A stretch of 64,000 nucleotides of DNA from Deltaproteobacteria bacterium. Lineage in GTDB: Bacteria; Myxococcota_A; Polyangia; HGW-17; SLPX01. The stretch spans positions 21,159-85,158 of the forward strand of contig JAGGXR010000162.1 in NCBI GenBank assembly GCA_021162935.1. Reading direction: 5' to 3'. This document shows positions 16,892 through 24,090 of this stretch, piece after piece; within the stretch, counting starts at the first letter, position 1, and every line of letters begins with the position of its first letter. The position numbers were made by a program, and so were the translations under genes. Under the pieces are notes generated by a model. It was not told where the DNA came from, searched no databases, and saw only the letters and a list, made by a program, of their open reading frames with translations.

Positions 16892-16920
16892 TTGACTGCC
16901 TCAAAGGACGCTATTATCTT
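16892..16920 (+). promoter_or_regulatory. Candidate sigma70-like promoter TTGACT-N17-TATCTT upstream of the 2xFHA/PP2C/FGE/STK/HK operon
   Basis: An AT-rich islet in GC-rich DNA. TTGACT at 16892-16897 and TATTAT/TATCTT at 16912-16920. About 85 nt upstream of the Zn-ribbon-FHA start. Confidence 0.3.
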
Positions 16921-17004
16921 ACTTGTTTCAGTTTGTAAACGCCTTTGATGGCCACGAGGCTGGCTGGACGTCGACGGGGTCACCCCCCAGCCATGGAGGA
17001 ATAC

Positions 17005-18171
17005 ATGCGCATCTGCCCGAGATGCGGTCGCGCCAACGAGCCAGACGCTGGTTTCTGTCAAGACTGTGGTGCCGACCTCAAAATGGCAGTCGACCAGGAA
17101 ACAGACGCTCAAATCTGTCCTGCTTGTGGGGCCACAAATCCGGTGGACAGCCGTTTCTGCCAGCGTTGCGGGATCCGCCTGGAACCCCATACTAGATATG
17201 AAGACACGGTCACGAGGCAACCCTGCCCCGTGTGTGGCAAGAACACGCCGGCGGGGTTTGCTTTTTGCCAATTCTGTGGCTCCAGGCTCCCGGGACAAGG
17301 AGACGAGCCCATCCAACCAACCCCACCAGCCGGCCTACCCAAACCCGCAACATCGAGTTGGGCCGTTCCCTCACCGGGTCGATCCGACGACGGACAAGCC
17401 CAGGCTGAAGAGTCGGACGTCCCACCGGACCGCACCATGGCAATTGGTGGCACAGGCCAGTTTCAGACGGCCACGGGCACAGAGTCTAGCAGCGCGCCCC
17501 CCGAGACGACCAAAGATTTTGCCATGACGTTAACGGTTCTCAACGAGAACCTGTCTGCAATGGCGACCCACCCCATCATCGAACTGCCCTTCGACATCGG
17601 GCGGACCGAAGGACACGTGTCCTTTCCCGAGGATCCGTACATGTCCATGCGTCACGCCAGAATCCAGGCCGGCAAGGCCGGCTTCGAACTGATCGACCTG
17701 GGCAGTGTCAACGGAATCTATCTCAAGATTCGAAAGTGCGTCCTCATCCAGGACGGCGACCAGTTCATCATGGGCGGCATGGTTCTCCGATTCGTGGAAC
17801 TCGCAGATTGGGAAAGGACCATCCGACCAGCCGTGGACCGAGGCGTCAAAGTTCTTGGGACCGCCCTCCCACAGACCTGGGGCAAGCTTCTGGTCATGTC
17901 CGAAGGCGGAACCGTCCTGGAAAGTCATTCCCTGACGAAACAGGAAACCGAACTCGGGCACAGTGAGGCGGACATCAACTTTCCCTTCGATCTGTTTCTG
18001 TCGAATCGCCACGCCCAGCTCAAAGTCGACAACGGCCACGTGCTCCTGTGCGACCTCGGCTCGACCACGGGGACCTTCGTCCGCGTCCAAGGCTCGTGCA
18101 CGCTGCGACCTCAGGACGTCGTCATGATCGGCAGGCACTTACTGAAATTCGAATCGAAGTCAGGCGGATGA
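17005..18171 (+). CDS. Triple zinc-ribbon protein with two FHA domains
   Basis: Three CPxCG-x8-11-FCxxCG zinc ribbons, a Pro-rich linker, then two FHA domains (IGRTEGHVSF...SMRHARI...SVNGIYL and LGHSEADINF...SNRHAQL...STTGTFV). Start chosen at the ATG with GGAGGA 4 nt upstream; the ORF could extend back to 16945. Confidence 0.75.
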   Translation: MRICPRCGRANEPDAGFCQDCGADLKMAVDQETDAQICPACGATNPVDSRFCQRCGIRLEPHTRYEDTVTRQPCPVCGKNTPAGFAFCQFCGSRLPGQGDEPIQPTPPAGLPKPATSSWAVPSPGRSDDGQAQAEESDVPPDRTMAIGGTGQFQTATGTESSSAPPETTKDFAMTLTVLNENLSAMATHPIIELPFDIGRTEGHVSFPEDPYMSMRHARIQAGKAGFELIDLGSVNGIYLKIRKCVLIQDGDQFIMGGMVLRFVELADWERTIRPAVDRGVKVLGTALPQTWGKLLVMSEGGTVLESHSLTKQETELGHSEADINFPFDLFLSNRHAQLKVDNGHVLLCDLGSTTGTFVRVQGSCTLRPQDVVMIGRHLLKFESKSGG

Positions 18172-21681: not shown

Positions 21682-21687
21682 CACCCC

Positions 21688-24090
21688 ATGCACGACTTCC
21701 TGACCGGTATCCTCCATCTCCGATTCACCCCTTGGTCCCTGCCGCACCTGGGCATGCTCATGCTCATGGTCGCGTTGCTCGTCAACACGAAGCGCCGGAT
21801 GCCCAACACCCCCCTGGTCCGATCCTATCGACTGATGGTGGGAGCCGCTCTCATCTGGACCCTCCTCGAAGGCATCCAGATATCGACCATATCTCCTGAA
21901 GCACAGTCTTTCTGGATGCGTCTCCAAGCGATCGGTTTTGCTGCCACCGGCCCTCTCTGGCTCGTGTTCACGACACGCCTGTCAGGGGGCAATTTGACGA
22001 AGAGTCGGGCAATCAGGTTCGTCCTGTGGCTCGTATATCTGGCCAGCCTGGCCATCGTGTGGACGAACCCCATCCACCACCAATTCGCCGGCAAGCACCC
22101 CAGCTCCCTCGGTGGCGGTCTGTTTTGGGCCCTGGTCACCACGCAACTCGGTTTGGTGGCCATTGGATATGCATCCATCATCGGATCCTTCCTCAAACAC
22201 GAATCCATGAGGAACACCCACGACCCACTCATCCTCCTCCTTGCCGCTGTCCCTCCCGCTGGATACATCCTCCTCGTTCCCAGTGGCTTACTCCCCACAT
22301 CACTGACCGGCCCGGTCACGGCCGCCTATGCAGCCATCTTGTATCTCGTCCTCAGGGGGCACCAACCATCACTCAAAGCACCTCTCAGTCTCCCGGTCCT
22401 CCTCAACACCATCGATGCTCTGTTGGCCGCCACCACCGTGGACGGGACCATCGTCGAAATCAATGACAAGGTGGACGACATCTTCAACGGACGGCTGGTT
22501 CCCAACGGCCGACCAAGGACCATCGCCGAACTCTTGACCCACATGGAACCTGCTACGCCGCCACCCGAATGGAGCACGCTGCAGCACCTTGACACGAAGC
22601 GCAGCCGGAAGCCCGTCCGGTTTTCTTGTCCATTGGGTGGCCCAGAAGGGCTATGGGCATCCATCGCCCTCCATCCTCTTCACCTGGGACGCCAGCTCTA
22701 CGGGTATCTCCTGCACATCCAGGACATCACCCAGGTCGCCACCATGGCTCAGGACCTCCAGCAACGGGACCAGGAATTGCGCCAGGCCCACCAGGAACTC
22801 GAACGGGCACACAGGAAGCTCGCCGCACGTGCAGAGGACCTGGAACGGGCAGTGGCGGCCAAGGCCGCCGCGCTGGAAGAACAGCACCAGCAACTGCTCC
22901 ATGCACAAAAAATGGAGAGCCTGGGCGCCTTGGCCGGTGGTATCGCGCATGACTTCAACAACGTCCTGTTCAGCCTGATCGGCTATGCCGACCTCATCCT
23001 CGAAGACCCACAGAACCCCGACGAGGTGGGATACTGCGCTGCAAAGATCAAGGCAAGCTCCCAGCGTGCAGCCGAACTGACCCGCAAACTCCTTGGGTTC
23101 GCCCGACGAGACAAGCCGCACCTGCAGGCCATGGACCTGTCCAGCCTGATTCGAGACGTGGTCGACCTCCTGCGCCGAACCGTCGAACCAAGAATCCAGT
23201 TTCGATACTCGATCGAGTCCTCTCAATCTCGAATCATGGGCGACCCGCAACAGATCCACCAGGTCCTGATGAACCTGTGCCTGAACGCAGCCGAAGCCAT
23301 TTCAGGCGCAGGACAAGTGACCGTATCCACAGAGGGACCGGTCGTGGGTGCAGACCTCCAATCCGGTCAATCGGGTATCGCTCAGGCCACCTGGTATCTG
23401 TTGCTCACGGTTACCGATACCGGCTGTGGAATGTCTGAAGAAACCGTCGCTCACGTCTTCGAGCCATTCTTCACCACCAAGAGCCGTGGCAAAGGAACAG
23501 GCCTGGGGCTCTCCCTCGTCTATGGCATCGTCAAAGAGCACGGAGGCTTCATAGACGTGACATCCACCCCGGGCAAGGGAAGTCGATTTCGAATCTATCT
23601 CCCCATCAAGCCTGGAGCCAGCCATGACGACGGACCGCAAGTCGACAAGCCAAGCACAGAGCGCGGATCACGACGAAAACGACCCGCCTTCAAGACGTTC
23701 GATCACCTGTCCCTGGAGCAACCCCGAGTCGGCATCCTGGTCATCGACGACAACCCGGACGTCTTGGCCCTGACAAAACGGTACTTCGCCGAACCCATCT
23801 TCGAGGTGACCACCGCCCAAAATGCCGCTGAAGGACAGGCTATTCTTGCCGACTCGAAACAGCACTTGGACGTGGTTCTGCTGGATCTCATCCTACCCGA
23901 CGGCGACCCGATCGATATTTTCACGCAGATCAAAGCCATCAAGCCAGGCATCCCAATCGTGATCATGAGTGGATACCACGATGACGACCGACTGAGCGAA
24001 CTGATGGTGATCGGCGCCGCCAAGTTTCTCAAAAAACCATTCAGCCGCAAGGACCTCCGCGCCACGGTGCGCCACATCCTCGAGGAGTGA
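21688..24090 (+). CDS. Hybrid sensor histidine kinase (7TM-type N-terminal sensor, HisKA, HATPase_c, C-terminal receiver)
   Basis: About 7 N-terminal TM helices and a coiled coil. HisKA H-box (IAHDFNNVLFSLIGYADL). HATPase (GTGLGLSLVYGIV). Receiver (ILVIDDNPDV...VVLLDLILPDGD...K). Starts 7 nt after the kinase stop. Confidence 0.8.
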   Translation: MHDFLTGILHLRFTPWSLPHLGMLMLMVALLVNTKRRMPNTPLVRSYRLMVGAALIWTLLEGIQISTISPEAQSFWMRLQAIGFAATGPLWLVFTTRLSGGNLTKSRAIRFVLWLVYLASLAIVWTNPIHHQFAGKHPSSLGGGLFWALVTTQLGLVAIGYASIIGSFLKHESMRNTHDPLILLLAAVPPAGYILLVPSGLLPTSLTGPVTAAYAAILYLVLRGHQPSLKAPLSLPVLLNTIDALLAATTVDGTIVEINDKVDDIFNGRLVPNGRPRTIAELLTHMEPATPPPEWSTLQHLDTKRSRKPVRFSCPLGGPEGLWASIALHPLHLGRQLYGYLLHIQDITQVATMAQDLQQRDQELRQAHQELERAHRKLAARAEDLERAVAAKAAALEEQHQQLLHAQKMESLGALAGGIAHDFNNVLFSLIGYADLILEDPQNPDEVGYCAAKIKASSQRAAELTRKLLGFARRDKPHLQAMDLSSLIRDVVDLLRRTVEPRIQFRYSIESSQSRIMGDPQQIHQVLMNLCLNAAEAISGAGQVTVSTEGPVVGADLQSGQSGIAQATWYLLLTVTDTGCGMSEETVAHVFEPFFTTKSRGKGTGLGLSLVYGIVKEHGGFIDVTSTPGKGSRFRIYLPIKPGASHDDGPQVDKPSTERGSRRKRPAFKTFDHLSLEQPRVGILVIDDNPDVLALTKRYFAEPIFEVTTAQNAAEGQAILADSKQHLDVVLLDLILPDGDPIDIFTQIKAIKPGIPIVIMSGYHDDDRLSELMVIGAAKFLKKPFSRKDLRATVRHILEE

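Follow-up and report, generated by a model that had tools for sequence, protein, structure and literature searches.

In Pseudomonas aeruginosa, the threonine phosphorylation pathway (TPP) of the H1 type VI secretion system (TagR-PpkA-PppA-Fha1) is encoded beside an envelope-spanning machine, and binding of phosphothreonine (pThr) by an FHA domain triggers its assembly. TagR (PA0071) contains an FGE-sulfatase domain (PMC7253367) and acts from the periplasm as an activator of the kinase PpkA (PMC6082577), a precedent overlooked in the original prediction for the DNA described here, which called the FGE domain an unexplained partner of bacterial Ser/Thr kinases (STKs). We describe a run of five genes (g1 to g5) on a 64,000-nucleotide stretch from a Deltaproteobacteria bacterium (GenBank assembly GCA_021162935.1, contig JAGGXR010000162.1, positions 21,159 to 85,158), referred to below as the window. 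These genes encode a protein with two FHA domains (2xFHA), a PP2C phosphatase, an FGE-fold protein, an STK, and a hybrid histidine kinase (HK). By domain content, the operon has the same four part types as the TPP, and it too lies beside an envelope-spanning machine, in this case a Tad-like system of the Kil type. With moderate confidence, we favor the view that this TPP-like module controls the adjacent Kil-type machine. We infer this link, together with the co-transcription of the genes, the phosphorylation partners, and the route from g3 to the kinase, from genomics only, and the promoter, motif, synteny, and export-signal results are sequence based. The five-gene set, its order, and its domains had been read correctly in the original prediction, as Pfam, NCBIfam, and a gene caller agree, but the neighborhood had been overlooked, namely the Kil-type cluster and a divergent pair of genes for exported proteins (u1 and u2), where most of the functional information lies.

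The comparison with the TPP also brings out differences. The TPP machine is of type VI, whereas the neighbor of the operon is Tad-like, and no type VI family was found among the ∼50 open reading frames (ORFs) of the window covered by our scans. The TPP kinase has a periplasmic vWA domain, but the kinase g4 is tail anchored without it, and genes for TagQ, TagS, and TagT are not adjacent to the operon. Relative to the TPP, the operon adds a seven-transmembrane (7TM) hybrid HK, and its FHA protein is extended by zinc ribbons and by another FHA domain, which is degenerate. Located 10 kb downstream (34232-38897, plus strand) is a set of genes for a LolA-like protein, two FtsX/MacB-type permeases, and an ABC ATPase; this set superficially resembles the LolCDE-like TagS/TagT partners of TagR and may consist of housekeeping Lol genes.

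Other described systems share some of these parts. The actinobacterial FhaA-FhaB-PstP-RodA-PbpA-PknA-PknB cluster combines one or more FHA proteins, a PP2C phosphatase, and one or more Hanks kinases in an operon. Our operon shares this logic but is without RodA or penicillin-binding protein genes and without PASTA domains, its neighborhood differs, and its matches to the FhaB and PknB NCBIfam models all fall far under the cutoffs. In the Esp system of Myxococcus, the hybrid HKs EspA and EspC occur with the Ser/Thr kinases PktA5 and PktB8. Esp resembles the operon in joining FHA-mediated STK signaling and hybrid HKs in one pathway, although the Esp FHA domain is located within the HK; g5 scores 179 bits against the EspC model, whose cutoff is 1200, and is thus not an EspC member. 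Finally, there are bacterial STKs with a C-terminal FGE-sulfatase fusion, e.g., the “Proteo1” family, and members of the same kinase family can have just a C-terminal transmembrane (TM) segment instead (bioRxiv 10.1101/2025.01.12.632604). In these fusion kinases the FGE domain is C terminal of the kinase, whereas g3 is predicted to be exported as a protein of its own, and its gene precedes that of the kinase. We considered whether g3 could be a fission product of a kinase-TM-FGE fusion and rejected this as a simple account on the basis of this gene order and of the kinase homologs, as none of the 120 best homologs of g4 carries a fused FGE domain.

The cluster upstream of the operon resembles cluster 1 (KilA, KilC, KilF, and KilD; PMC8460266) of the Kil system, the Tad-like apparatus with which Myxococcus xanthus kills prey, having a comparable short secretin and FHA-bearing ATPase and, as a candidate counterpart of KilD, a downstream FHA multidomain protein. 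The window ATPase shares 167 of 235 residues (71% identity) with the KilF segment of M. xanthus, taken from the source data of PMC8460266; the identity is 51% for Bdellovibrio and ranges from 34 to 58% among the other taxa compared, and the N-terminal part of the window ATPase is 67% identical to KilF versus 34% to Caulobacter CpaF. The window trio matches KilC, KilF, and KilD as described in PMC8460266 and in supplementary file 1 of that paper (KilD is MXAN_3108), the KilC-like and KilD-like proteins being putative counterparts of Myxococcus KilC and KilD by description, position, and domain content. The FHA domain of the KilD-like protein is clear, its TPR matches are weak (E values of 0.1 to 0.5), and those of its ortholog in the related locus L091 are faint; M. 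xanthus KilD has been described as cytoplasmic, whereas the window protein has a TM helix. No prepilin peptidase (KilA), pilins, or platform proteins were found among the scanned ORFs of the window. The window cluster is without an adjacent prepilin peptidase or pilin gene, whereas two distant relatives, L102 and L103, have them, a Peptidase_A24 prepilin peptidase standing beside the homologous Kil cluster in both and a Flp pilin gene being added in L103. Published Myxococcus Kil clusters contain no kinase, PP2C, or FGE genes. The upstream signal cascade of Kil is described as unknown, with FHA domains overrepresented and the type VI pathway given as an analogy (PMC8460266, PMC12428579), and our literature search for a kinase linked to Kil found none. 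A sigma-54 enhancer-binding protein with an FHA input domain instead of a receiver is encoded divergently from the secretin gene (6521-7909, minus strand). The 330-nt intergenic region upstream of the kilC-like gene had no match to a sigma-54 promoter, and window-wide counts of such matches equaled chance.

To place the locus among its relatives, we compared loci (labeled L004, L085, etc.) recovered through exact-protein lookups and one metagenome scan. Five lineages (L004, L085, L087, L088/89, and L091) share the full arrangement from the secretin gene to RidA, in which genes for the secretin, the FHA-ATPase, and the FHA protein are followed by u1 and u2 on the opposite strand and then, divergently, by g1 to g5 (without g3 in L091). 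Across all loci, the sole invariant feature is the 2xFHA gene divergent from u2-u1. In 8 loci, including the window, L102, and L103, a KilC/KilF/KilD-like cluster directly adjoins the u1/u2-2xFHA block; its L102 and L103 versions comprise KilA/KilC/KilF/KilD and stand beside u1-u2 and a divergent zinc-ribbon 2xFHA gene. In two further loci (L098 and L099), a gene upstream of u1 codes for a T2SS-E ATPase that is more distant (37% identity). The core of the distant loci consists of u1 and u2 on one side and, divergently, the 2xFHA gene, PP2C, a variable slot, and the kinase, with PP2C and the kinase usual behind the 2xFHA gene. Neither a Kil cluster 1 on one side nor PP2C and kinase on the other is universal, although both are frequent, and the HK is limited to a close clade of six lineages.

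The position between PP2C and the kinase appears to be a variable accessory slot. It is occupied by an FHA-TM-trypsin-like protein in L093 (2882-4528), by a small FHA-TM protein in L098 (12803-13273), or by nothing, and a protein of one of these two FHA-TM types is encoded next to the 2xFHA gene instead of an FGE protein in L103 (5756-7264). In L101, the 2xFHA gene is followed by an FGE ortholog (39% identity, with a signal peptide) and then by a member of the g4 kinase family that has a periplasmic domain of ∼400 amino acids. A PF03417 (AAT/peptidase C45) gene lies beside the 2xFHA or PP2C gene in L102 (5647-7350), L103 (2777-4495), and L104 (4670-6370), and long ORFs similar to these genes follow the kinase in L093 and L098. 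Outside this set of relatives, a scan of GTDB species representatives with g3 returned no close relative (best identity, 32%); its 80 loci held unrelated FGE genes, with a kinase nearby in just 2. Named homologs of the g4 kinase and of u1 point to Myxococcota (Polyangia, Myxococcales, and Kofleriaceae).

The five co-oriented ORFs of the operon lie on the plus strand between 17005 and 24090 of the window, whose overall GC content is 60% (Table 1), and the gene caller gave the same genes on identical metagenome contigs. The start of g1 (ATG 17005) agrees with the gene caller and has a Shine-Dalgarno sequence (GGAGG, 16995-99) that is kept in relatives. All three overlaps that had been taken as a sign of coupling are in the sequence (ATGA at 18168-18171, GTGA at 19211-19214, and ATGA at 20122-20125), but only the GTGA at 19211 is conserved as an overlap, reading GTGA in L004 and ATGA in L087, both with an upstream Shine-Dalgarno sequence. 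The ATG of g2 at 18168 is doubtful, and GTG 18207 or ATG 18228 is probably the true start, since the region corresponding to 18172-18206 is disrupted by frame-breaking indels in L004, the closest relative, which shares both downstream codons with the window. The kinase g4 most likely starts at ATG 20128, which follows the stop-CC-ATG pattern of L085 and L087 (TGA-CC-ATG is identical in L087), has better Shine-Dalgarno spacing than the alternative, and is the choice of the gene caller on the identical contigs. The HK does follow the STK directly, its ATG lying 6 nt past the STK stop. Across relatives, the g1/g2 spacer ranges from −4 to +98 nt and the g4/g5 spacer from 3 to 73 nt, with 3 to 6 nt in three lineages and 39 to 73 nt in L087, L088, and L091. 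Stoichiometric coexpression, as claimed originally, does not follow from this layout, because for two of the overlaps the start codon probably lies elsewhere and the spacers vary.

Table 1. Positions of the operon genes, the promoter block, and the neighboring genes, counted from the first letter of the window.
Feature	Position	Strand	Description
KilC-like short secretin	8241..9665	+	474 amino acids; T2SS-T3SS_pil_N and Secretin domains; directly upstream of the ATPase
KilF-like Tad/T2SS-E ATPase	9690..11750	+	N-terminal FHA and T2SSE domains
KilD-like protein	11769..13973	+	FHA, one TM helix, long helical C-terminal domain
u1	14127..15575	-	Predicted secreted protein of uncharacterized family; fold nearest to clostridial alpha-toxin/zinc phospholipase C
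u2	15591..16745	-	Lipoprotein-like exported protein; weak CarboxypepD_reg-like domain (beta-sandwich)
Promoter block	16892..16940	+	-35 TTGACT 16892-97, 17-nt spacer, -10 TATCTT 16915-20
g1	17005-18171	+	Cytoplasmic protein; zinc ribbons (DZR, three or four) and two FHA domains (Pfam/NCBIfam)
g2	18168-19214	+	PP2C Ser/Thr phosphatase, Stp1-like; start ambiguous
g3	19211-20125	+	FGE-sulfatase domain (Pfam E value, 1e-38); predicted exported
g4	20128-21681	+	Zinc ribbon, PQ-rich linker, Pkinase, C-terminal TM helix; alternative ATG 20122
g5	21688-24090	+	Hybrid HK: HisKA_7TM, linker and coiled coil, HisKA, HATPase_c, REC

The five tightly packed genes are nonetheless very probably co-transcribed as one operon, as suggested by their layout. 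No promoter-like or terminator-like sites above chance were found inside the operon; a promoter-like site at 18457 and a terminator-like site at 22603 were within chance expectation and were discarded. Nor was an intrinsic terminator found after g5, where the fold is no better than that of shuffled sequences. All genes of the locus are under purifying selection (dN/dS, 0.07 to 0.21).

The TTGACT-N17-TATCTT element named in the original prediction is present upstream of g1 (16892-16920), in an AT-rich patch that is the second most AT-rich 60-nt stretch of the whole 64 kb (35 to 38% GC versus 60%). A single sigma-70-like match is not significant by itself, since 11.5 kb of sequence gave 4 such hits where 3.1 ± 1.8 were expected. 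The −10 element lies inside an invariant CTATTATCTTA, and a second invariant box, TTTGTAAAC, is found at 16932-40 and has no other exact copy in the window. In the window, L004, L085, L087, and L088, the three elements TTGAC, CTATTATC(T/C)TA (which holds the −10), and TTTGTAAAC are invariant, and the spacers of the block as well as the flanking intergenic DNA have diverged across these five lineages. The minus strand of the block reads TTTACA-N17-TAATAG, and the u2 start codon falls within the block in L085 and L087, from which we propose overlapping divergent promoters for g1 and u2 in a putative bidirectional control region.

The FGE-fold protein g3 has a signal-like N terminus and a three-helix module that bears the motif CGPALFxW, and its residues 88 to 300 form the FGE domain. 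Its AlphaFold2 model (pLDDT, 87) finds CalU17, FGE, and pFGE as best Foldseek matches (E value of 1e-15 to FGE structures), and by sequence its closest solved structures are CalU17 and pFGE/SUMF2. The conserved FGE cysteines that had been proposed for mutagenesis are not there. The active-site loop of g3 reads GGSWKSSVASSRIA, and in a profile alignment to human and Streptomyces coelicolor FGE, the two copper-binding Cys are matched by a Ser and by a gap of 3 residues. In the human enzyme these Cys are C336 and C341, as given in PDB entries 2aft and 2afy. Both cysteines are replaced, and the loop is 3 residues shorter, across the whole g3 subfamily. With both copper-binding residues absent, g3 is, as judged from this alignment, not a formylglycine-generating enzyme.

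Export of g3 is predicted from its orthologs, which carry a clear Sec signal peptide or a lipoprotein signal with an LAAC lipobox. The protein is the fastest evolving of the locus, at about twice the rate of its neighbors (63% identity versus 76 to 89%; dN/dS of 0.21 versus 0.07 to 0.15), and by this ratio it is still under purifying selection. A neighbor-joining tree of four shared proteins nests L091 beside L088, so that the absence of g3 from L091, which kept the rest of the arrangement, is a secondary loss.

The motifs of the remaining operon proteins agree in most points with the reader, eraser, and writer roles assigned to them originally: those of PP2C, kinase, and the first FHA domain are intact, but the second FHA domain of g1 is degenerate, lacking the phosphate-binding Arg and Asn. 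Between the zinc ribbons and the canonical first FHA domain, g1 has an otherwise variable linker with an invariant PTPPAGLPKPxT (17305-17355, residues ∼101 to 117), a candidate kinase target or docking site. The phosphatase g2 scores 225 bits against NF033484 (cutoff, 230) and retains the metal-binding motifs RDHNED, DGMGG, CSDG, and DNIT. In g4, the catalytic motifs GxGxxG, VALK, HRDIKPEN, DFG, and SPE are all there, and the single C-terminal TM helix, a predicted tail anchor, ends 4 to 5 residues before the stop. The H, N, G1, and G2 boxes of g5 are intact, the receiver residues DD, D733, S761, and K783 are there, and an HPt domain is absent. Kinase, phosphatase, HK, and receiver thus all keep intact catalytic motifs, from which we predict activity-competent domains. 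The PQ-rich linker of g4 is encoded by a near-perfect 45-nt tandem repeat (20511-20621; 2.1 copies, 98% match), which explains a local AT-skew anomaly, and the length of this linker varies between orthologs (517 versus 494 amino acids).

On the other side of the control region, u2 is transcribed away from g1 in all relatives that we examined, and u1 is always encoded with u2, adjoining the 2xFHA gene and often near Kil genes. The u1 protein has a signal peptide and no Pfam domain and belongs to a family of 28 uncharacterized homolog clusters; searches of Pfam and of PDB sequences and profiles gave no sequence-level match. Its AlphaFold2 model (pLDDT, 88) has the alpha-toxin 1olp as its sole Foldseek match below 1e-3 (TM scores, 0.30/0.38), and the fold match to Bacillus cereus phospholipase C is weaker (TMt, 0.49). 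The sequence contains HVLQDMACPSH, which fits the H-x3-D-x3-P-x-H pattern of zinc ligands, although the two His vary in ∼12 of 29 family members. On the basis of the modeled fold, u1 is a possible lytic effector.

Farther from the operon, a DksA-like gene with a second Ser/Thr kinase of 471 amino acids behind it lies at 78-2016 (plus strand), and the same pair is also found ∼3 kb from the kinase/FGE/FHA locus in L101 (15575-17529). On the minus strand, 24562-29390 encodes an SLT lytic transglycosylase, an unknown protein of 508 amino acids, a FecR/PEGA/TPR protein, and an ECF sigma factor, a set that is kept downstream of the operon in L085 and L087 and replaced in L088. The 64-kb window has no tRNA genes, and an Rfam scan of 13.9-24.7 kb gave no match.

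These observations can be assembled into a working model of a TPP-like module controlling the Kil-type machine. One operon would be transcribed from a conserved sigma-70-type promoter, with a control region shared with u2-u1. The tail-anchored Hanks kinase g4 would act as the writer and the PP2C phosphatase g2 as the eraser, with g1 as the reader or scaffold and a likely substrate via its PTPPAGLPKPxT linker. The periplasmic g3, without catalytic Cys, would serve as an input that binds a ligand or partner, by analogy with TagR and PpkA, and the 7TM hybrid HK g5 would add a second membrane input. Since g4 has no periplasmic domain, the signal from g3 would have to pass through another protein, perhaps the 7TM kinase or the periplasmic domain of the KilD-like protein. 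The output would be pThr-dependent recruitment or activation of the FHA-bearing KilF-like ATPase and of the KilD-like protein, with a possible effect on u1 and u2 too. A bolder version, which we regard as tentative and rather doubtful, takes the operon to be the missing contact or envelope-damage pThr pathway of Kil machines, with u1 as a lytic effector or accessory. Here, g3 and the 7TM HK would sense a prey or envelope signal, the kinase would write pThr, and KilF, KilD, and the 2xFHA scaffold would read it through their FHA domains, assembling the machine at the contact site.

Several points weigh against control of the Kil-type machine by the operon. Gene-neighborhood association is the whole basis of this reading, and g4 offers no periplasmic domain for g3 to bind. 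The loss of g3 from L091 without other losses means that g3 is dispensable. The FHA/PP2C/kinase core occurs with u1/u2 in L090, L101, and L104, which have no Kil ATPase within 10 kb; conversely, L102 and L103 have the Kil cluster with u1/u2 and the FHA gene and no kinase within 10 kb, and no kinase is reported for the M. xanthus kil clusters in PMC8460266. An alternative is a general envelope-signaling cassette whose only partners are u1 and u2, the adjacency to Kil being a lineage-specific accident of gene order. The invariance of the divergent u2-u1 and 2xFHA arrangement, the sole feature common to all loci, and the several loci without a Kil ATPase within 10 kb speak for this explanation. 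However, Kil cluster 1 flanks u1 in 8 loci including the window, among which L102 and L103 are distant and differ in their remaining neighborhood, and L098 and L099 carry the distant T2SS-E ATPase upstream of u1; in addition, the FHA domains of the KilF-like and KilD-like proteins need a kinase. We consider a cassette without a link to Kil unlikely.

It is still less probable that two independent pathways are merely co-transcribed, with the HK running its own His-Asp relay without cross talk to the STK, PP2C, and FHA proteins. The restriction of the HK to a close clade, its absence from the wider core, and the longer g4/g5 spacers of 39 to 73 nt in L087, L088, and L091 speak for such independence, but within the clade the HK is always directly downstream of the kinase (3 to 6 nt in three lineages), no terminator or promoter separates g4 from g5, and the HK is the sole operon protein with a substantial membrane- or periplasm-facing surface, which g4 lacks. 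A sensor role in conflict systems has been suggested for FGE-fold domains, and the kinase domain matches PADLOC kinase models (e.g., PD-T4-6 and mad6), with a subthreshold NCBIfam MADS6 match, so one could imagine an antiphage system in which the FGE fold senses the invader and the kinase is the effector. These PADLOC matches reflect the generic kinase domain, though, and the other tested proteins gave none save a weak match of PP2C to PDC-M21C (E value, 2.4e-4); moreover, there are no defense-island neighbors, and the chromosomal linkage to secretion genes has been kept through deep divergence, under purifying selection, making a defense role very improbable. We give next to no credence to the idea that g3 generates formylglycine, be it to mature a sulfatase or to modify an operon protein. 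The strong FGE-sulfatase Pfam match and the FGE fold would agree with catalysis, but the copper-binding cysteines are gone and the loop is shortened throughout the subfamily, CalU17 and pFGE/SUMF2 stand nearest in sequence among solved structures, and no sulfatase family had a match among the ∼50 scanned ORFs of the window.

The cassette itself is already known in kind, and what is new is how it is configured and that it is attached to a Tad-like system of the Kil type. If the link to Kil were a coincidence of gene order, the operon would be an ordinary Myxococcota-style Ser/Thr signaling cassette. How prey contact triggers the Kil-type machines of predatory Myxococcota, and why their proteins carry so many FHA domains, is an acknowledged gap (PMC8460266, PMC12428579), for which the operon supplies concrete candidate genes. 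It also gives a working role to the pairing of STKs with catalytically dead FGE-fold domains, which is frequent in bacteria and poorly understood, and flags the u1 family as possible alpha-toxin-like effectors. If control of the Kil-type machine by this module is true, the pThr logic of type VI secretion would extend to a second, unrelated class of contact-dependent machines.

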